From: an uncultured Methanomassiliicoccales archaeon
Lineage (GTDB): Archaea; Thermoplasmatota; Thermoplasmata; Methanomassiliicoccales; Methanomethylophilaceae
Length of the DNA stretch: 64,000 nucleotides
Assembly (NCBI GenBank): GCA_959597175.1
Contig: CAUFXM010000007.1
Span: 6,450 to 70,449 of the forward strand
Reading direction: 5' to 3'
Shown: in pieces, positions 2,940-31,757 of the stretch
Numbering within the stretch: the stretch's first letter is position 1
Layout: the number at the start of each line of letters is the position of its first letter
Position numbers and translations under genes: made by a program
The notes under the pieces: generated by a model
The model's input: the letters and a program-made list of their open reading frames with translations, nothing else
Told to the model about the DNA's origin: nothing
Database searches by the model: none

Positions 2940-3085
2940 GTTCCCTTCCCATCTTTTCGAAGACCAAAACGGTTCGACGGCGACTCAGAAACCTCGTCGT
3001 CGGAACGGCATCCCATGAGGTCGCGTACAGATCAGTTCAAGCGAGATGATGCGGCCTCTCGGCCACGAGATGAGATGAAGAAGTG

Positions 3086-3207
3086 GCTGACAGCGTGTCT
3101 GAGTTCCCGTACGCTTGCGCAATACAGTACAGACAGATACGCGGGCGGACTTTACTTCCGGGTTCGGGATGGGACCGGGTGTGACCCCGCCGCTATGGCC
3201 GTCATAC
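3086..3207 (-). rRNA. rrf: 5S ribosomal RNA (stand-alone, no 16S/23S nearby)
   Basis: Reverse complement reads TGACGGCCATAGCGGCGGGGTCACACCCGGTCCCATCCCGAACCCGGAAGTAAAGTCCGCCCGCG...GCTGTCA; 5' TGACGGC pairs with 3' GCTGTCA (helix I); ends approximate to a few nt. Confidence 0.9.
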
Positions 3208-20886: not shown

Positions 20887-21105
20887 TCAGGCGCTCTCGG
20901 CGGCCTTGAGGGATGACTTGTAGGCCTCCAGCACTGCGGGGACGGTCATGACGCTGACCGCTTCGACGAGGGAGTCCCAATCCTCCTCGGATATCATCAC
21001 GATGTTTCCAGCGCCGGTGCTGATGGTGATTTTCTCTCCCATCAGGGATCTGTCGACGAGTTCGCGCATCTTTTCCTGCGCACTGGGAACATCGTATGTT
21101 GCCAT
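20887..21105 (-). CDS. Phd/YefM-family type II antitoxin (no partner toxin seen)
   Basis: 72 aa; ...ELVDRSLMGEKITISTGAGNIVMISEEDWDSLVEAVSVM... matches Phd/YefM pattern. Confidence 0.7.
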   Translation of the reverse strand: MATYDVPSAQEKMRELVDRSLMGEKITISTGAGNIVMISEEDWDSLVEAVSVMTVPAVLEAYKSSLKAAESA

Positions 21106-23158: not shown

Positions 23159-24406
23159 ATGATTCAGTGTCCGCGCGGTACCAGGGACTTCCTCCCTGAC
23201 GAGATGGAGAAACGCAAGTTCTACGAGGACAGGCTCAGGCACACCGCGAGGACGTTCGGCTTCAGGGAGACCGAGACCCCGATCTTCGAGGATGCCGAGC
23301 TTTTCATCCTCAGGTCCGGGCCCAACGTTCTGAAGGAGTTGTACGCCTTCGAGGACAAGGGCGGAAGGCAGATTGCCCTTCGTCCCGAGATGACCGCTCC
23401 TGCCGTCAGGATGTTCGTAAACAGCATGAGCAACGACCCCAAGCCGATCAAGATCTTCTACTTCGGTCAGTGCTTCAGGTACGAGAGGCCGCAGAGCGGG
23501 AGGTACAGGGAGTTCTTCCAGTTCGGAGCCGAGATCATCGGTGGGGCCACGCCCGAGACGGATGCCGAGGCCATCGCACTGGCCTACGCGCTAATAGGGC
23601 AGATTGGTGTGAAGGACTACCGCATCCGCATCGGCCACATCGGTGTCCTCAGGCAGAGGATCGCCGACGCCGGCGTACCGCAGGAGAGGGCCGCCGAGGT
23701 CCTCCAGAAGCTGGACAAGAAGCTCTACGACGAGGCCCGCCCCCTCATGGAGGGCATGGGTGTGAGATCCGAGGACATCGATAACATATTCGCGCTGACG
23801 GAGACCGTTGGCGGAACGGAGGTCCTGGACAGGGTCCCGGGCGAGGCCGGCGACTGGCTCAGGCAGGTCGTGGCGTATCTGGACGCGATGGGCGTCAGGG
23901 ATCTGGAGATCGACCTGGGTGTCGTCAGGGGGCTCGACTACTACACGGGCATGGTCTTTGAGGCAGAGGCTCCGGCGCTCGGCGCCGAGAAGCAGATCTG
24001 CGGAGGCGGTTCGTACACGCTCTCCGAGCTGTTCGGTGGGGAGAAGGTGTTCTCCACCGGTTTCGCCATCGGGTTTGACAGGATCCTGCTGGCGCTGGAG
24101 AAGGAGGGTTGCTCGTACCAGCCCAAGGGGCTCGACGCCTACGTGGTATCTGTCACGGACGATGTGAGGATGAGGGCCGCCGAGGTCACCGCGTCGCTCA
24201 GGGCGGCAGGCGTCTCCGCTGACATGGACATCATGGGCAGGAAGATGGCCAAGGCGCTGAAGTACGCGTCATCGGTGAGGGCGAGGTATGCTGTCATCGT
24301 CGGCGCCAAGGAGCTTGAGCAGGGCTCTGTCACGCTGAGGGACATGTCCACCGGGGAGCAGGAGCTCGTCCCGATCGATGGTCTCGCTCAGAGGATCGGG
24401 GCCTGA
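23159..24406 (+). CDS. hisS: histidine--tRNA ligase
   Basis: RGTRDFLP, RPEMTAP, FRYERPQSGRYREFFQ, GGGSY class II HisRS motifs. Confidence 0.95.
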   Translation: MIQCPRGTRDFLPDEMEKRKFYEDRLRHTARTFGFRETETPIFEDAELFILRSGPNVLKELYAFEDKGGRQIALRPEMTAPAVRMFVNSMSNDPKPIKIFYFGQCFRYERPQSGRYREFFQFGAEIIGGATPETDAEAIALAYALIGQIGVKDYRIRIGHIGVLRQRIADAGVPQERAAEVLQKLDKKLYDEARPLMEGMGVRSEDIDNIFALTETVGGTEVLDRVPGEAGDWLRQVVAYLDAMGVRDLEIDLGVVRGLDYYTGMVFEAEAPALGAEKQICGGGSYTLSELFGGEKVFSTGFAIGFDRILLALEKEGCSYQPKGLDAYVVSVTDDVRMRAAEVTASLRAAGVSADMDIMGRKMAKALKYASSVRARYAVIVGAKELEQGSVTLRDMSTGEQELVPIDGLAQRIGA

Positions 24407-24911
24407 CCCTGGTGCGTGCAAGGATCTGCTGAATGCAGAACGCCGAGAGGACCGGCTGCAGGAGGTCCTCCCCAGCCAGCCACCCGTCAAGCTCCAGGGG
24501 TCTGTCAGGGGTTCCGAGGCCCTCGAACGTTCCGGGCGAGCGGTAGTTGTCCCTGGCCAATACACGACCGACGCTCCCGGCCAGCTCGGAAGCGATCATT
24601 GGCGGCATCCTGTCCAGTGCCATGCAGGCGACCGGCGTGCCGGAGACGTCGCAGAGGCACCCGACCGTCAGGATCCTGGTCTCCGGCCCCTCGCAGGTGT
24701 GGAGGATCACGCTAAGCCTCCTGCTCTCAGTCCGGAGGTCCATCCTCCACCCCAACCTCTCCGCCGTCGCGGAGTATATCCCCGCGCTCACGGACATCGT
24801 GTCCATGTCAGACAGTCTGTATATCGCGGAGAGGTCGTCATCGGTCATCGTTCCGCGCGGATGGCGCAGAACGCCTCCGCGACCGGTCATCGACAGCACC
24901 ATCATGCGCAT
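24330..24911 (-). CDS. hypothetical protein translationally coupled to the helicase (candidate fifth gene of the Shango-like cassette)
   Basis: 193 aa; starts MRMMVLS with ATG codons overlapping helicase TGA (24902..24911); balanced composition, unlike the R/P-rich plus-strand ORFs; last 77 nt overlap hisS convergently. Confidence 0.5.
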   Translation of the reverse strand: MRMMVLSMTGRGGVLRHPRGTMTDDDLSAIYRLSDMDTMSVSAGIYSATAERLGWRMDLRTESRRLSVILHTCEGPETRILTVGCLCDVSGTPVACMALDRMPPMIASELAGSVGRVLARDNYRSPGTFEGLGTPDRPLELDGWLAGEDLLQPVLSAFCIQQILARTRVRPRSSERDHRSGRAPAPRWTCPSA

Positions 24912-27145
24912 CGTCCGGCGTCCCTCGTCTCCGAACCCGCGGGCGATCGCGTCGAATCCGAGCGCATCCAACAGGGGTGCACGGCAGCAATCCTCGGTAC
25001 CCACCGTCGATCACCTCGGGCGATGTCGAAGTCCCAGTCCAGCCTCCTGGCGCAGAACGCGTTGGCCAGGAGGTCGTCTGGGACGAACCTGTCGAACTTC
25101 TTGGACCTCAGCCTGTCCTCCGGGGACAGGAGGGTCGATATCGCGCCTTCGGACCTGATCCGTGCCAGTCCCTCCAGTATCGCGTCAGGGGGCAGGTCGG
25201 TGGCGACCTCTATCACCACCGGGCTGTAGGCCCACAGCACCTGGACCCCGTCGATTTCGGACAGCATCCTCCTGAGAGTGTCGAACTTGACGGATCCCAG
25301 CCAGGGGTAGACCGAATACCCCAGGTCGGAGTCCACGAACACGTCCGCCGTCCCCGAGGCCCTGAAGGCGGATCTGGACGTCGACAGCTCGACCCTGGCG
25401 GCGCTGTCCAGGTACGGGTAGTCATCGTCCGACAGCAGGACATCCCTCATCTTAGCCACCACTCTGTCGTCCACGTCAGGGGCTTCGCCGGACCAGGAGC
25501 GGTCGGGGTCGCCGTCGGTCTCCTCCACATCCACCCATCCGTCGCCCCTCCTGGTGACCACCCACACCCTTCCCGCGAGACCTATCCTGGTCCCGTACTC
25601 GGGCTCCCCCTGGACGGTGCCGACCGGGGTGCCGTTGCATCTGACCTCCGTCTCCTTCTTGACGGTGAACACGGACGGGAATTCCCCGCCGAATGCCAGC
25701 CATTCCGCGGACGGGCCTATTACGAGGGACCGGTCAGCCGTCTGGACCATGGCCCCCTGGACTATCATGTGCCTCGCCAGCCTCCTGTACTCTTCGACCG
25801 TGATCCCGGCGAATGGGTCGAGCGACAGAACGTCCCTGACGAGATCGGTGAACCTAACGTCCCCGGTCGCCCCCTTCAGTGCCGCCAGGGTCTGGTGGAA
25901 CAGGAGGCCGTATGGGAGGGGGTCCGGGGCCATCCTCTCCGTCCACCCCTCCCTCAGGTACAGCTCCGTCTCCGCGATCCCCCTGGCCAGCTCCATCGAG
26001 ACCCCGTCGATCCCGGGATGCCAGATGGCATCGTCGTCGTTGCAGAACATGATCATCTCCTGCCTGCCGCCGCGCCTCCCGGACCTGCCCATCCTCTGTA
26101 CCATGCTGGAGCAGGTCCAAGGGGCGCCGATCTGCACGACCCTGTCGAGACCTCCGATGTCCATCCCGAGCTCCAGCGTCACGGTCGCCACCACCGTCGC
26201 CCTCGGATCGCCCTTCAGGTCGGCCTCAGCCAACCTCCTGGTCTCGGCGGTGAGGCTGCCGTGGTGCACCCTAACCGGGTTCCTGGACCCCCTGGCCTTC
26301 GAGACCTTCTCCAGGGATCTGGCGGTCCTCTCCGCCGCGGCCCTGCTGTTGGTGAACACGATGCAGTTGTATGGGTCTGTGAGCCTGAACAGCTCCGAGT
26401 AGTAGGACAGTACGGCACGGTCCCTGCTGCCCTCCCTGTCCTTGGGCGGGAACCTGCAGTGCTTGATCCCCATCCTGCAGGACCTGCGGTCGTCGGAGGA
26501 CACCACCGACACGCCCCGTCCGGTGCTGCCCCCCAGCCATCCGGCCGCTTCCCCCGGCTCTGAGAGCGTCGCGGACAGCCCAATCCTCCTGGGGGAGCAT
26601 CCGGCAGCCCTCTCGATGCGGGTGAGCTCGCAGAGAAGCTGGAGGCCCCTGTCTGAGGACATGAACGCGTGGAGCTCGTCGACTATGACGAATCTGAGGT
26701 TTCCGAACATACGGCGGAGATCCTCCGGATGGCCGTCGATTATGCCCTCCAGGGACTCCGGAGTGATCTGGAGGATCCCCTCCGGCTCCCTGAAGATCGC
26801 CTCCTTGCGGAACGCGTCAACGTCCCCGTGCCATCCGCTCACCTTTATCCCGGAGTCCCTGAGCATCAGGTCGAATCTGGAGAACTGGTCGTCTATCAGC
26901 GCCTTGGTGGGGCCTACGTAGAGCGCCCCGATCCCGTCAGGGGGATCAGAGTGGAGGGAAGATACGACCGGTATCAGCGCGGCCTCCGTCTTCCCTGACG
27001 ACGTTCCCGACGAGATCAGGAGGTGGTCGTCCGTGTCGAACAGGACGTCGAACGCCCTGAGCTGCACATCCCTGAACGACGTCCATCCGCTCCTGTGAAG
27101 GTGCTCCAGAACGAAGCGAGGCATGCGGTCGGTGTGGTCGTTCAT
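24902..27145 (-). CDS. Lhr-like DExH-box helicase (SngC-like)
   Basis: GTSSGKT (26987..27007), DELH (26669..26680), SAT, QRMGRSGRRG; about 300-aa C-terminal extension; ATGA overlap with upstream ATPase. Confidence 0.8.
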   Translation of the reverse strand: MNDHTDRMPRFVLEHLHRSGWTSFRDVQLRAFDVLFDTDDHLLISSGTSSGKTEAALIPVVSSLHSDPPDGIGALYVGPTKALIDDQFSRFDLMLRDSGIKVSGWHGDVDAFRKEAIFREPEGILQITPESLEGIIDGHPEDLRRMFGNLRFVIVDELHAFMSSDRGLQLLCELTRIERAAGCSPRRIGLSATLSEPGEAAGWLGGSTGRGVSVVSSDDRRSCRMGIKHCRFPPKDREGSRDRAVLSYYSELFRLTDPYNCIVFTNSRAAAERTARSLEKVSKARGSRNPVRVHHGSLTAETRRLAEADLKGDPRATVVATVTLELGMDIGGLDRVVQIGAPWTCSSMVQRMGRSGRRGGRQEMIMFCNDDDAIWHPGIDGVSMELARGIAETELYLREGWTERMAPDPLPYGLLFHQTLAALKGATGDVRFTDLVRDVLSLDPFAGITVEEYRRLARHMIVQGAMVQTADRSLVIGPSAEWLAFGGEFPSVFTVKKETEVRCNGTPVGTVQGEPEYGTRIGLAGRVWVVTRRGDGWVDVEETDGDPDRSWSGEAPDVDDRVVAKMRDVLLSDDDYPYLDSAARVELSTSRSAFRASGTADVFVDSDLGYSVYPWLGSVKFDTLRRMLSEIDGVQVLWAYSPVVIEVATDLPPDAILEGLARIRSEGAISTLLSPEDRLRSKKFDRFVPDDLLANAFCARRLDWDFDIARGDRRWVPRIAAVHPCWMRSDSTRSPAGSETRDAGRCA

Positions 27146-28431
27146 ACTTCCAGGTCACCGATGAGGTCGTCGTCCGGGTTGTCGTCTGGCTCAACCGTCC
27201 TGCCGGTCACCATCGATTCGAACGTGGCATCCGGGTTCTGGTGCAGGGTGTCCAGGAGGCTGATGAAGTCGCGGGTGATCTCCCTGGGTGTGACCAGCCC
27301 GGCCCCGACGGTGCAGGTGACAGTCTTCAGGTAGGTCTCCAGCATGGAGTCGTCTATCCCCGACCGGTATGAGTAGCGCTGCTCGTGCATCCCCCTCAGC
27401 GTCCTCAGCAGGACGAAGACCTCCTCGTTCGTCAGCGGCCTCAGGTTGATGACCGGGCCGAGGTAGTTGTCGTACCCGTTCTCGTATCTGCCGGCGACCA
27501 GTCTGGACCTGAGTGCCTCGTAGCTGTACAGACCTCTGTTGGGATCCTCTATGAACTCGGGGGTCCCGCAGACGTACATCGAGAGATGGGAGGACTTGCC
27601 CTGCATGATGTCGTTGAACATGGTGAGGAGCCTCTCGTAGTTGTTGCTGCGGGCCACCTTGCTCTGGATCTTGTACAGGATAACACCCTCGTCGATGAAT
27701 ACAACCAGGCCCTTGTACCCGATCCCGGAGCAGAACGCCGCCCACAGCTTGATGAAGTCGTACCAGTTGGCGTCGGTGACCATGTTCGATATGCCCAGGT
27801 CCTTGCGCACGTCGGACTTCAGTTCGTACTCGCCCTTGAGCCATCTCACCGAAGGCATGTCGTCAGAGCCGGAGCTGAGGTCCTCCCAGTACCTGGAGAC
27901 CACGGAGGCGAAGTCCTGATGGAACGTCATCCCGCTCATCTCTGCGGTATCACGCCTCAGACGGTCGCACACCTCTTCCGCCGTCAGGGACTCAACCGTC
28001 CTGCCCGTCTCGGAGGCTACGCGTCCCCTGATCTCGGAGACCCATTTCTGAAGCACGGTCTCCATCGCACCCCCGTCCGGCACCGACTTGACCGCCATGT
28101 TCCTTATCAGTTCGCGGTAGGTGTTCAGGCCCTCCTTCTTGCTCCCCGTGAGCCTGCGGTTTATTGCCAGGTCGGCATCCATGACGACGAACCCGCGGTC
28201 CATGGCGTAGTTGCGGATCATCTGGACCATGAAGCTCTTCCCGTTGCCGAAGCGTCCTGACACGAACCTGAACGCTCCGCCGCCCTCCGCGGTGTCCTCC
28301 AGGTCGCTGACGAATGTCTCGGTCTCCTTCCTGCGTCCCACGGCGATGTACTCCAGCCCCCTGCGGGGGACTACGCCCGAGGACAGGGCGTTCATCATCG
28401 TGATAAGTGTTCTGCGCGGGATGTCGACCAT
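27142..28431 (-). CDS. DUF2791/BrxD-like P-loop ATPase (SngB-like)
   Basis: Walker A GRFGNGKS (28234..28257), Walker B-like GLVVFIDE; N-terminal ...ALSSGVVPRRGLEYIAVGR... as I recall for DUF2791. Confidence 0.7.
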   Translation of the reverse strand: MVDIPRRTLITMMNALSSGVVPRRGLEYIAVGRRKETETFVSDLEDTAEGGGAFRFVSGRFGNGKSFMVQMIRNYAMDRGFVVMDADLAINRRLTGSKKEGLNTYRELIRNMAVKSVPDGGAMETVLQKWVSEIRGRVASETGRTVESLTAEEVCDRLRRDTAEMSGMTFHQDFASVVSRYWEDLSSGSDDMPSVRWLKGEYELKSDVRKDLGISNMVTDANWYDFIKLWAAFCSGIGYKGLVVFIDEGVILYKIQSKVARSNNYERLLTMFNDIMQGKSSHLSMYVCGTPEFIEDPNRGLYSYEALRSRLVAGRYENGYDNYLGPVINLRPLTNEEVFVLLRTLRGMHEQRYSYRSGIDDSMLETYLKTVTCTVGAGLVTPREITRDFISLLDTLHQNPDATFESMVTGRTVEPDDNPDDDLIGDLEV

Positions 28432-28456
28432 GACATGTCCATGGACTCGATGTATT

Positions 28457-28714
28457 TCAACTTGAAGAGGGGCCGCCGCCGAGCCGTGTCAGCGCCGCCC
28501 GCAGGTCGTCCTCGTAGTCCTCCACCAGCGAGCCCGTCTCCACGACCACGTCACCGACGGTGTCCATCGCCGCGGTGTTGATCTCCTCCTCCAGGGCGCC
28601 CCTCTTGAGCACATCCGCCACCGGTTTCACGCCGTCCAGGAGGGATGAGAGGTATCCCAAGGCATCGTCAGATAGGGATCCTACGAAGGCGGACCAGGGC
28701 CCGTCCGCAGTCAT
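28457..28714 (-). CDS. TerB-C-like small ORF; in frame with upstream ORF across a TAG
   Basis: 85 aa; RGALEEEINTAAMDTVGDVVVE resembles the conserved core of TerB-C; same frame as 28733..30706, separated only by TAG plus 6 sense codons. Confidence 0.55.
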   Translation of the reverse strand: MTADGPWSAFVGSLSDDALGYLSSLLDGVKPVADVLKRGALEEEINTAAMDTVGDVVVETGSLVEDYEDDLRAALTRLGGGPSSS

Positions 28715-28732
28715 CGCCGGTTCGGGAACGGG

Positions 28733-30706
28733 CTAGGACAGCACCTCGGGCTCCACCTCGTCCTCTGTGACCATCAACGTCCTCACGGCGTCAAGATCGT
28801 CCTCGGCGGAGCTCACAGCGCGCATGTCGATGGAGAATCTGTCCATCCTCCGCTCCAGGTCCTGCCTGCGGACCGATCTGGAATGTTCCCTGTAGATGCC
28901 TTCCAGCTTCTCGTCCATCCCCTCATGATTCCTCCCGAACGTGCATCTGGAGGGCCATCCCTTCAACCCGAGTTCCCTGTTCACCGCGCGGATGGTGTAT
29001 GCAAGGCACGTCCTCGCGATCCAGGATGCGCCGCTGAGGTTCTTGGGCTTGAGCGCGGGCGTCGCATGGGTTGTGCTCCTGTGGGGCATGTAGTTGAACA
29101 GCGTCGTGTACGATGTCCCCCTCATTCCGATCTCATCGCTGACGATGAACTCGCATCTCGACCACATCCCGCTCAGGAGGACGTTCAAGAGGGTGTCGTA
29201 ATCCGCGTCGGGATCCATGAACCTGCCCATCTTCCCGCCGCACCAGGCGTCCAGCATCCTGGCGGTCATGGTCCCGGGCGACCGGAGGAGCAGCTTCAGC
29301 GTGACGCATCTGTCCAACTGGTTCCACCGCGAGGCATCCGTGCCTTCGGGAGGTCCGATGGCAGGATCCATCATGTGCAGGTCGGCGTAGTCGAGTATGA
29401 CCCTGTCCAGGGTCTCGGCGGGCCATACCCCGTCAGTTGTGTATGCCCTCCTGAGGTTGAGGAGGATGCCCATCACATCCTGGGGCTCGCCCCAGGAATC
29501 GACCAGATCGCAAAGGAGCAGCCACAGGTACCCCTCGTCGGTGCCTCTGAAGACGCCTGCCGCGACCTCGTCCCTCCATGAGAGATAGAAGTCCCTCTGG
29601 GCGGGGGTCATCGTCGAGAACTGGGCCGGCACCGACCCCGATTCCACGTATGGGGCGTTGACCCTGCCGACAGACGTCCTGTTGGACTCCAGGTCCTTGA
29701 AGAACCTGCCGGAGGCCCTGACGTTCCTGAGCCTCCCCTTCGGTGCGACGGAGCCCAGGACCTGGATCTCCGCAGGGGTCGAGGGGGCCTCTGCGAACAC
29801 AGGTTCGTCCCACTGGGTCCATTCCCCCTGAGCCTCCGAGCCGAGGGCGTCCATCGCGATCTGCAGGTCGACGGAGTCCATGGCCTCGATCGGTCCGACG
29901 CCCAGGCCGTCCCAGTCCCAGAACGTGCGTTCGCACACCGCCGCCGCTATACCGAGGAAGGTCGCTCTCCACCGGTCCGTGTCGTATGACCTGTAGCGAA
30001 CGGTGATGCGTTCGGGTCCTGCCAGGTAGGCGAACCCGTCGAAGAGCATGACGTCCTCGGAGCGGTCGTCGGCGATGGCGTCGAAGCCATGGTCGGACAC
30101 CACGGCTCTGGCACACCTTGTGAAGAGGGTGGAGAACGTTGCCCGGTCCGGCACCTCCAGGATCCTCTCGTCTCCGCACATCTCGGCTATCACCGGGACG
30201 TCGATGTCGTTCTGCCTCCTTCCGTTGAGCGCCGAGTGCACCGCGTATCCCCTGAGCCTCCTGCCGGACCACATGAACCTGCAGTCCCAGTCGAGGCCCA
30301 GAAGCAGTGCCAGATCCTTGGACGCGTTGGCGGCCATCACGGACACCGGCGTGCCGCGGAACCTTCCGACCATCCCTGCCACCTCGTCCAGGAGCTTCGA
30401 GGACCCGAAGCCCGCTCCTTCCATGCCGACGGTGTTGGCTATCTCGCAGATCCTGAGCCAGGCGAAGCCCCAGTCCGCGGGGACGTCCTCCCCGGCGTTT
30501 AGCCCCGTTCTCCATGACAGGTACGATTCCAACGTCTCGGGGGACATGTCGGCGTGGTACACGGGCCTGTCGTCAGGTTGGCGGTACCTGCCGGGAGCAA
30601 CCCTCGCATCCCTGTACCTCATGATGTCCGAGAGGAACGAGTCCGGAGGCAGCAGGATGAGCGAACGGCCACGGGCCTCAAGTCTGCGACGGGACTCCGC
30701 ATCCAT
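28733..30706 (-). CDS. TerB-N-like protein with two TerB-N modules (SngA-like); ends at TAG
   Basis: Two copies of ...M(S/T)P....YLSWR....AG.....G(F/Y).WL..C... (nt 30428..30574 and 29489..29656); C-terminus FSIDMRAVSSAEDDLDAVRTLM resembles the start of TerB-C. Confidence 0.6.
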   Translation of the reverse strand: MDAESRRRLEARGRSLILLPPDSFLSDIMRYRDARVAPGRYRQPDDRPVYHADMSPETLESYLSWRTGLNAGEDVPADWGFAWLRICEIANTVGMEGAGFGSSKLLDEVAGMVGRFRGTPVSVMAANASKDLALLLGLDWDCRFMWSGRRLRGYAVHSALNGRRQNDIDVPVIAEMCGDERILEVPDRATFSTLFTRCARAVVSDHGFDAIADDRSEDVMLFDGFAYLAGPERITVRYRSYDTDRWRATFLGIAAAVCERTFWDWDGLGVGPIEAMDSVDLQIAMDALGSEAQGEWTQWDEPVFAEAPSTPAEIQVLGSVAPKGRLRNVRASGRFFKDLESNRTSVGRVNAPYVESGSVPAQFSTMTPAQRDFYLSWRDEVAAGVFRGTDEGYLWLLLCDLVDSWGEPQDVMGILLNLRRAYTTDGVWPAETLDRVILDYADLHMMDPAIGPPEGTDASRWNQLDRCVTLKLLLRSPGTMTARMLDAWCGGKMGRFMDPDADYDTLLNVLLSGMWSRCEFIVSDEIGMRGTSYTTLFNYMPHRSTTHATPALKPKNLSGASWIARTCLAYTIRAVNRELGLKGWPSRCTFGRNHEGMDEKLEGIYREHSRSVRRQDLERRMDRFSIDMRAVSSAEDDLDAVRTLMVTEDEVEPEVLS

Positions 30707-30779: not shown

Positions 30780-31757
30780 ATGACGCCCAAGGACCTTCTG
30801 AAGAGCAGCGCGTTCATGATGTCCATGGCGCTCATTATTGCGCTGCTGACCAATCTTTGCGACGTGTTCCCGGATGCCCTGGATTCGGATCTGAGGTCCA
30901 ACATCACGATACTCCTCCTCGCGGTCATGATGACCCTCTCACTCTCCAGGTACAGGTTCAGCAACCTCAACCCTGTGACGCATTGGAGGTCCGTCCTCAG
31001 GGCGCTCTTCATGGGGCTTGTGCTGTCGTCGATAATCCCCATCGCCGGATACCTCCTGCTTAAGGACACCGAGTACGGGGCCCAGGCGGCCGGGCTGGTG
31101 TTCATCGCCGCCACGCCGTTCGCCGCGTCCGTGGCCCCTCTGTCGTACATCCTGAGGGGAGACATGGAGCATGCCGCCAGAGGCACGGTCTACGTGTACG
31201 TGGTCTCGCTCGTCTGGATCCCGTTCATAGTCTGGGCCACACTGGGAGAGACGGTGGACATCGTGCAGGTCATCGTCTCCGTGGTCGAGGTCATAGGCAT
31301 CCCGCTGGTGGTCTCCAGGCTCCTGACGAGGTTCGAGCTGAGCAGGGACTTCATGGCGGTGTTCATGAACTGCTGCATATTCGTGCTCGTGTGGCTCTCC
31401 GTCGGATCCACCAACTTCTCCATACCCGCCGGGATCCTGGTCGCGTTCGCGGTCATCGCGGCCCTCAGGTCGTTCGGGCTCGGAAACGTCATCGAGGTCG
31501 CGGAGAGGCGTGCCGGGATCCCGTGGGGGCAGAGGGTGGCGGACATCCTCATGGCATCCTACAAGAACAAGGGGATCGCCATCGCCATGTGCGTGGCGAC
31601 GCTCGGGCCGCTCGCCGCCGATGCGATGGTGGCCATCGCCGCATCCATCGTCGTGGAGATCTGCTGGGTCATCTTCATGGACTCCGTCCTGTTCAACAGG
31701 AGGCGCATGGAGAGGGAGATGGCCAGGGACTCCGAGGGGCAGTCTTCCGAAGCCTGA
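30780..31757 (+). CDS. bile acid:sodium symporter (BASS/SBF)-like membrane transporter
   Basis: 325 aa, about 9-10 TM; ATPFAASVAPLSYILRGD resembles BASS signature. Confidence 0.5.
   Translation: MTPKDLLKSSAFMMSMALIIALLTNLCDVFPDALDSDLRSNITILLLAVMMTLSLSRYRFSNLNPVTHWRSVLRALFMGLVLSSIIPIAGYLLLKDTEYGAQAAGLVFIAATPFAASVAPLSYILRGDMEHAARGTVYVYVVSLVWIPFIVWATLGETVDIVQVIVSVVEVIGIPLVVSRLLTRFELSRDFMAVFMNCCIFVLVWLSVGSTNFSIPAGILVAFAVIAALRSFGLGNVIEVAERRAGIPWGQRVADILMASYKNKGIAIAMCVATLGPLAADAMVAIAASIVVEICWVIFMDSVLFNRRRMEREMARDSEGQSSEA

Follow-up and report, generated by a model that had tools for sequence, protein, structure and literature searches.

The Shango systems of Escherichia coli and Pseudomonas aeruginosa consist of a TerB-N/TerB-C protein (SngA), a BrxD-like ATPase (SngB; PF10923, formerly DUF2791) and an Lhr-like DExH helicase (SngC), which are encoded on one strand in the order A-B-C. 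Shango is already known from archaea, where it has been reported as enriched in Asgard genomes (PMC11291487), and pyrrolysine (Pyl) is already known from defence proteins such as Cas1. Here we describe a gene block in a stretch of 64,000 nucleotides (the window) from an uncultured Methanomassiliicoccales archaeon (contig CAUFXM010000007.1, positions 6,450 to 70,449 of the forward strand). The block has the same three genes, on one strand and in the same order, and we conclude from its sequence that it is a genuine copy of the known Shango (SngABC) gene cluster. Taken as a whole, it is probably a horizontally acquired Shango antiviral operon of a gut or rumen Methanomethylophilaceae methanogen, with a Pyl-containing SngA and with a further open reading frame (ORF), ORF5, as an add-on. 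What is new is modest: a Shango subtype that is common in Methanomethylophilaceae-like genomes, a Glu/Pyl-codon polymorphism in SngA and an orphan gene specific to a sublineage.

The Shango operon and its proteins

Three related contigs are used for comparison. L001 is a sister-strain contig with the same arrangement, 98.2% identical over 22 kb, and P0001 is the SngA ortholog encoded there. L088 is an independent metagenome contig from a strain of the same species; its identity is 97.5% with the window and 96.0% with L001. L082 is a contig of a more distant relative (86% identical). The core genes and their motifs are the following.

28457..30706, minus strand: sngA, long form with two TerB-N and a TerB-C-like region, 749 codons with one in-frame TAG (continuous frame; ortholog P0001; PADLOC SngA; Pfam TerB_N)
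27142..28431, minus strand: sngB, BrxD-like P-loop ATPase (PADLOC SngB, 8.3e-151; Pfam BrxC_BrxD PF10923, 8.8e-137)
28234-28257, minus strand: Walker A of SngB, GRFGNGKS (motif check)
27688-27705, minus strand: Walker B of SngB, VVFIDE (motif check)
24902..27145, minus strand: sngC, Lhr/BrxHI-like superfamily 2 DExH helicase (PADLOC SngC, 1e-171; Pfam DEAD and Helicase_C)
26987-27007, 26669-26680, 26567-26575 and 26069-26098, minus strand: SngC motifs GTSSGKT, DELH, SAT and QRMGRSGRRG (motif check)

The genes are adjacent and co-oriented, with sngA running from 30706 to 28457, sngB from 28431 to 27142 and sngC from 27145 to 24902. There are 25 nt between sngA and sngB, and the stop of sngB overlaps the start of sngC as ATGA. 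An initial annotation, made from the DNA letters, had listed five minus-strand ORFs in this block and had named the Walker A/B, GTSSGKT, DELH, SAT and QRMGRSGRRG motifs; all five ORFs have the coordinates it gave, and every motif lies where it was placed. Its call of a Shango cassette is likewise borne out, as the profiles of TerB_N, BrxC_BrxD (formerly DUF2791), DEAD/Helicase_C and PADLOC Shango all match.

The PADLOC SngC match covers profile positions 7-710 of 720. SngB also matches BrxD (1.2e-48) and SngC also matches BrxHI (1.3e-113) in PADLOC. Since these BREX matches are weaker than the SngB and SngC matches and no other BREX genes lie nearby, the block is a Shango cassette. Membership in BREX (type 2) was considered and rejected because PglX, PglZ, BrxC/PglY or other Brx genes are absent nearby; the BrxC profile matches SngB at just E=0.039.

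By sequence, SngB belongs to the BrxD-type P-loop ATPases and SngC to the Lhr/BrxHI-type DExH helicases; Walker A and B are intact in SngB, as are motifs I, II, III and VI in SngC. No sequence relative of SngB was found among solved structures, and an exact-sequence look-up with SngB of the window gave no match. The closest PDB relatives of SngC are Lhr (5v9x, 4e-30), MrfA/YprA (6znp) and a second Lhr entry (7lhl), and in NCBIfam it matches the ligase-associated DExH helicase (6.8e-56). In the window and in L001, SngC carries a 36-aa C-terminal tail after ...DWDFDI, whereas in L082 it stops straight after DWDFEI (window 24902-25009 compared to L082:1350-1460). This tail lies beyond the matched part of the PADLOC profile, is not conserved and overlaps the N-terminal region of ORF5 out of frame. 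It resembles a stop-loss extension.

SngA is a protein of ~750 residues in which two TerB-N modules precede a helical, TerB-C-like tail.

29828..30637, minus strand: TerB-N-like module 1, residues ~24-293 with the core motif at 41-94 (internal repeat; Pfam TerB_N in two stretches; AlphaFold2 model)
29381..29791, minus strand: TerB-N module 2, residues 306-442, the best Pfam stretch (PF13208, 1.7e-10; PADLOC SngA profile positions 64-197)
28484..28918, minus strand: C-terminal helical TerB-C-like region, residues ~597-741, spanning the TAG (PADLOC SngA stretch on P0001)

Pfam TerB_N (PF13208) matches SngA in two stretches, with 41.4 bits against a cut-off of 25. The M(S/T)P..YLSWR..G(F/Y).WL..C(E/D) module occurs at residues 54-88 and 366-400, and the protein contains an internal repeat (residues 41-94 and 353-406, 31% identity over 54 aa, E=1e-6). 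In the AlphaFold2 (AF2) model, which has a mean predicted local distance difference test (pLDDT) score of 83, two alike modules of helices plus a hairpin are predicted, followed by a helical tail; the secondary-structure pattern of module 1 repeats that of module 2. No PDB structure is significantly similar to the model (best E=0.11, template modelling score <= 0.16), and a search of solved structures with the family profile gave no sequence relative. For the C-terminal region, the PADLOC SngA profile matches the intact ortholog P0001 (1e-31) in a single stretch running through the TAG position, with profile positions 375-525 (of 528) aligned to residues 600-737. The two pieces in the window match separately (2e-20 for the 657-aa ORF and 3.4e-7 for the 85-aa ORF, the latter aligned to the C-terminus of the profile). 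The segments FSIDMRAV...RTLM and RGALEEE...VVVE were located at 28772-28837 and 28538-28603, respectively. Furthermore, Pfam TerB_C is significant in 8 of the 22 sequences of the SngA family alignment (best 8.9e-10).

A word-indexed search with SngA found the sister-strain ortholog alone, and the family became visible only in a full HMMER scan. That scan yielded 220 relatives, many of them 700-760 aa long, and most of the aligned ones carry both TerB-N motifs. In TAG-depleted metagenome loci, whose SngB is 63-72% identical, SngA is typically ~750 aa long with motifs near residues ~55 and ~388. In more distant, bacterial-like loci (SngB 44-48% identical; TAG is 11% of the stops) it is 520-670 aa long, and most of those scanned show one TerB-N motif, the remainder showing none under the search pattern. 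These sequences indicate that the TerB-N duplication is a clade feature, usual for the ~750-aa SngA of related TAG-depleted gut and rumen loci. The duplication noted in the initial annotation is thus real, as seen in the repeat and in the AF2 pattern, but it is not peculiar to this locus.

The in-frame TAG of sngA

28733..28735, minus strand: in-frame TAG at codon 658 of sngA, a candidate for pyrrolysine (GAG in L001, TAG in L088)

The 657-aa and 85-aa ORFs share one frame, and between them lie just this TAG and six sense codons. With TAG written as O, the sequence around the site reads EVLS-O-PVPEPAMTADGPW; the frame continues past the TAG with PVPEPAM. In the sister strain L001 the codon is GAG (Glu), and the ortholog P0001 is contiguous, 749 aa long and 98% identical. 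In L088 the same codon is TAG, and the 91 downstream codons are intact, with no frameshift or further stop. As the TAG occurs in the window and in the independent contig L088, 2.5% diverged, and the frame is intact, the TAG allele is neither a sequencing error nor a very recent lesion. The site lies in a linker that is hypervariable, acidic and proline-rich in the family alignment, and residues 649-662 of this linker have a pLDDT below 50 in the AF2 model and are thus predicted to be disordered. The family-invariant residues N710, G718, D719, G725 and Y731 are all encoded after the TAG, and every one is retained.

We then compared the use of TAG as a stop in the sampled loci, which is not a count over whole genomes. 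Among the gene-like ORFs of the window, a single one of the 49 stops is TAG, namely the stop at the sngA site. The proportion is 3.0% and 2.9% in close relatives, 16% in Methanomassiliicoccaceae-like loci and 26% in other archaea. For comparison, 1.6% of stops are TAG in Ca. M. alvus, for which many Pyl proteins, Cas1 among them, have been predicted (Borrel 2014, PMC4153887), and proteomics of Methanomethylophilus alvi supports that every TAG encodes Pyl (Genetic Code 34; Kivenson 2024, 10.1101/2024.09.30.615893). Kivenson defines a Category 1 Pyl gene by an internal TAG, more than 30% identity to a known protein on either side of it and an extension of more than 15 aa, and a Group C genome by TAG making up <=5% of stops. 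In the sampled loci, the window and its close relatives fall within the Group C range. In sngA, 91 codons follow the TAG without overlapping sngB, and the homologs P0005, P0006 and P0007 (31-36% identity) align in one stretch, from residues ~48-122 to ~740. The sngA TAG is thus of Category 1 by that definition. Some 30 related archaeal SngA genes are all single contiguous ORFs.

The initial annotation had described an "amber-interrupted TerB-C". Because the lineage hardly uses TAG as a stop, proteomics in the group reads TAG as Pyl, the GAG/TAG polymorphism lies in the linker and the TAG allele occurs in two strains, the sequences instead suggest that the TAG is most likely read as Pyl and that the two ORFs form one Pyl-containing SngA of 749 residues.

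A further gene with in-frame TAGs was seen beside a related Shango operon (L096:1004-3842, minus strand, and likewise in L094). It has ~946 codons with three in-frame TAGs and ends at a TGA. By eye, it seems to encode a kinase-like domain and, after it, Sel1-like and leucine-rich repeats, and the first TAG falls within a repeat motif (LTIP*TVKTIGDMAF). The product looks like a protein with several Pyl residues, in support of a sense reading of TAG in the clade.

Genomic context, distribution and the gene downstream of sngC

The host was placed by hisS as a Methanomethylophilaceae archaeon: the hisS relatives are Methanomassiliicoccales and Methanomethylophilaceae metagenome-assembled genomes (top identity 90%), in line with the archaeal origin assumed initially. 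Two genes flank the Shango block.

23159-24406, plus strand: hisS
30780-31757, plus strand: SBF/BASS-family transporter gene, on the side opposite to hisS

Within ~10 kb on either side of the block, the genes, as listed from Pfam matches in the syntenic L001, are hisS, a DEAD-box helicase, MFS, threonyl-tRNA synthetase (ThrRS), SBF, GNAT, FNT and similar ones. A search for att-like direct repeats and tRNA fragments around the block gave only short chance matches, so there are no flanking repeats that would mark an insertion. Two further features were noted in the window. A 72-aa ORF (20887-21105, minus strand) resembles a Phd/YefM-type antitoxin, with a weak NCBIfam phd_fam match below the cut-off (E=0.021); it is kept beside the DEAD-box helicase gene in relatives and is duplicated in L004. 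A 5S rRNA gene lies at 3085-3206 (minus strand; Rfam, 87 bits), and no 16S or 23S gene was detected across the window.

The presence of the block between hisS and the transporter gene was compared across genomes. It is not universally conserved. Among 80 species-level hisS loci, just one (L006) has SngB and SngC beside hisS, and there they are differently arranged. In the closest relatives, the order ThrRS, Phd-like ORF, DEAD-box helicase, tRNA-Gly and hisS is kept, but hisS is followed by an ABC transporter, RNase H and PanD. The related Shango loci, about 40 in number, lie in other genomic contexts. As Shango occurs at hisS in just one other of the 80 loci and in varied contexts elsewhere, the block is accessory and not housekeeping. 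SngA and SngC also gather more amino-acid changes than the flanking housekeeping genes.

The L006 locus (L006:5740-6480) belongs to a second Methanomassiliicoccales genome. Here, sngB and sngC lie directly upstream of hisS on the same strand, with ~60 nt between the stop of sngC and the start of hisS, and ORF5 is missing. Of sngA, the last ~50 codons are left, next to a gap of 100 N flanked by a direct repeat of ~190 bp; this state could reflect a mis-assembly or a real disruption. In addition, two loci of Methanomassiliicoccaceae archaeon Tb.RUG.29 (L100, JAEEGL010069788.1, and L028, JAEEOP010000001.1) are on contigs that both measure 167,861 bp. If these are one contig, as their equal length suggests, Shango lies ~15-25 kb from hisS there, which would confirm that Shango is found at differing places in related archaea.

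Directly downstream of sngC lies the fifth ORF of the block.

24330..25004, minus strand: ORF5, an orphan of 224 aa from GTG 25004, or of 193 or 191 aa from ATG 24911 or 24905; overlap with the sngC tail and, over 77 nt, with the 3' end of hisS

Of the ATGA overlaps described initially, the one between sngB and sngC stands as it was given. The overlap at the sngC stop is also real, but it involves ATG 24905, two codons downstream of ATG 24911, which had been taken as the start. In the comparison to L082, conserved coding in the frame of ORF5 extends upstream to about GTG 25004, and the start is thus probably located there. The codon-usage score of ORF5 (0.31) is within the range of real genes and higher than that of all antisense frames. 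Homologs were found at 100, 89 and 60% identity, the last of them in the same position in L082, where the convergent arrangement of sngC and ORF5 with hisS recurs. The ratio of nonsynonymous to synonymous substitution rates (dN/dS) is 0.30 for ORF5, compared to 0.11 for sngC and 0.06 for hisS, and all indels in ORF5 are in frame. ORF5 and hisS converge and overlap by 77 nt (24330-24406), such that the last 26 codons of ORF5 are antisense to the hisS 3' end, and this overlap is kept in L082. Overlaps of this length are unusual, and this one implies that hisS constrains the last 26 residues of ORF5.

No match to ORF5 was found in Pfam, PADLOC, NCBIfam, PHROGs or the PDB sequences, and a profile search gave no further relatives. 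A pattern scan of metagenome contigs returned 299 pattern matches, none of which is a true relative. The AF2 model of ORF5 has a pLDDT of 45 and was not used for a fold search. In the about 40 related Shango loci, ORF5 is absent and no conserved fourth gene follows sngC. Together, these comparisons characterise ORF5 as a real, fast-evolving orphan gene that appears confined to a sublineage. The fifth gene that had been proposed as part of the cassette thus holds up as a gene, given its codon usage, homologs, synteny in L082 and dN/dS, but not as a general component of Shango.

Recurrent ORFs of ~375 aa downstream of sngC in related loci were considered as counterparts of ORF5 and rejected as unrelated: they are aminotransferase-like (by eye) or encode a Fic protein (HPFxxGNGR). 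The Fic-domain protein, with the HPFEDGNGRTGR motif, is encoded directly downstream of sngC at L085:11443-12579, L086:8684-9706 and L087:10790-11926. It may be a separate, clustered defence or toxin gene.

Proposed function, alternatives and comparison with known systems

By analogy with bacterial Shango, SngA would act as a sensor or scaffold that recruits the SngB ATPase and the SngC 3'-5' helicase/translocase or licenses them to act. SngB and SngC would then act on viral nucleic acid or replication intermediates and thereby block virus replication. The Pyl residue would sit at a permissive, disordered linker position of SngA that is occupied by Glu in the sister strain. ORF5 would be a fast-evolving add-on specific to the lineage that shares its transcription, and probably its translation, with sngC; we can only guess that it serves as an accessory regulator or effector.

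Several observations weigh against this interpretation. The division of labour between sensor and motor is conjecture, as Shango has neither a published mechanism nor a solved structure, and its antiviral activity has been shown just in E. coli and P. aeruginosa (Millman et al. 2022; Johnson et al. 2023). Pfam TerB_C reaches just E=0.2 on the 85-aa piece and does not match P0001. The link between ORF5 and Shango is purely one of adjacency, seen in three or four close strains. Neither pyl genes nor tRNA-Pyl were found in the window, and the decoding machinery is deduced from the lineage and its codon usage. Between the two TAG strains, the ratio of nonsynonymous to synonymous changes is 6:5 downstream of the TAG compared to 10:26 upstream, in counts that are very small. 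This could reflect relaxed constraint or simply a variable loop in that region.

The slight excess of nonsynonymous changes would be in keeping with the TAG being a true stop. SngA would then be a truncated protein of 657 aa that lacks the TerB-C tail, in a decaying system, or it would be naturally split into parts of 657 and 85 aa. The latter had been the reading of the initial annotation, and the 85-aa part would be made by termination-reinitiation at an ATG seven codons downstream. In the standard code the sngA frame is indeed interrupted, the archaeal release factor is still able to compete for TAG (as discussed in 10.1101/2024.09.30.615893), and L006 suggests that sngA can be lost while sngB and sngC stay, although there is an assembly gap at that site. 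However, TAG ends no other gene-like ORF of the window and accounts for ~3% of stops in relatives. The TAG allele is found in two strains 2.5% apart, in which the 91 downstream codons are undamaged and the family-invariant residues are kept. For the split version, no Shine-Dalgarno-like sequence was seen by eye before the downstream ATG, and this ATG is already present in the GAG strain; thus, it was not created as a start. The contiguity of the ~30 related archaeal SngA genes also argues against a split. We therefore regard a true stop as unlikely, and we favour the single Pyl-containing SngA.

It is also conceivable that the cassette is a DNA-repair or replication-stress module that serves the host chromosome and not immunity. 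The closest solved relatives of SngC, Lhr and MrfA, are helicases of the DNA-damage response, and the NCBIfam match to the ligase-associated helicase points in the same direction. The locus lies among housekeeping genes with no recognisable defence island, and the triad appears to have been first predicted as a 'DNA-processing' system. Against this, the Shango-specific profiles fit all three proteins far better than generic helicase, ATPase or BREX profiles, the phyletic pattern is patchy and the location variable, as is typical of mobile defence genes, and SngA and SngC evolve fast. Homologous bacterial triads, moreover, protect against phages. We thus consider a role in host repair highly improbable. 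A more elaborate idea is that ORF5 is a lineage-specific fourth Shango component, docking on the tail of SngC as an effector, anti-toxin or regulator, and that the TAG/GAG difference makes full-length SngA depend on charged tRNA-Pyl in some strains. If true, the strength of antiviral defence would be tied to methylamine and Pyl metabolism; we consider this very unlikely.

As a Shango operon, the locus offers a clear example from host-associated methanogens, and it shows that a long-form SngA with a double TerB-N is common among loci that are TAG-depleted and Methanomethylophilaceae-like. It also calls for caution in annotation, in that a defence gene of a Code 34 archaeon looks broken or split under the standard code and intact when TAG is read as Pyl. 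The Glu/TAG polymorphism illustrates how TAG can drift into non-essential positions once it is a sense codon. How Shango works is a question that this case alone does not open.

Compared to Shango of E. coli and P. aeruginosa, the system described here has an archaeal host and is known from its sequence. Its SngA is ~750 aa long and has an extra N-terminal TerB-N-like module, whereas the PADLOC profile has 528 positions and one TerB-N. Further differences are the in-frame TAG of sngA, which probably encodes Pyl, the 36-aa tail of sngC and the orphan fourth gene coupled downstream. The TAG-depleted Shango loci from rumen and gut (L084-L124) have the same operon order, with SngB 63-72%, SngC 45-57% and SngA 22-40% identical. 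They differ in that ORF5 is missing, the in-frame TAG of sngA occurs nowhere but in L088, and the operons lie beside an aminotransferase, a Fic protein or a small membrane protein. The likeness to BrxD and BrxHI of BREX type 2 lies in SngB and SngC, which match the profiles of both systems; thus, the ATPase-helicase pair is a module shared by Shango and BREX. The difference is that the Sng profiles score far higher and that a TerB-N/TerB-C protein is encoded upstream. Lastly, SngA resembles Category 1 Pyl proteins such as Cas1 of Methanomethylophilus alvi in being a defence-related protein other than a methyltransferase, with an internal TAG, homology past the TAG and a lineage in which TAG is rare as a stop. 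It differs from them in that its Pyl is predicted and its site is polymorphic, with Glu and TAG found in close strains.

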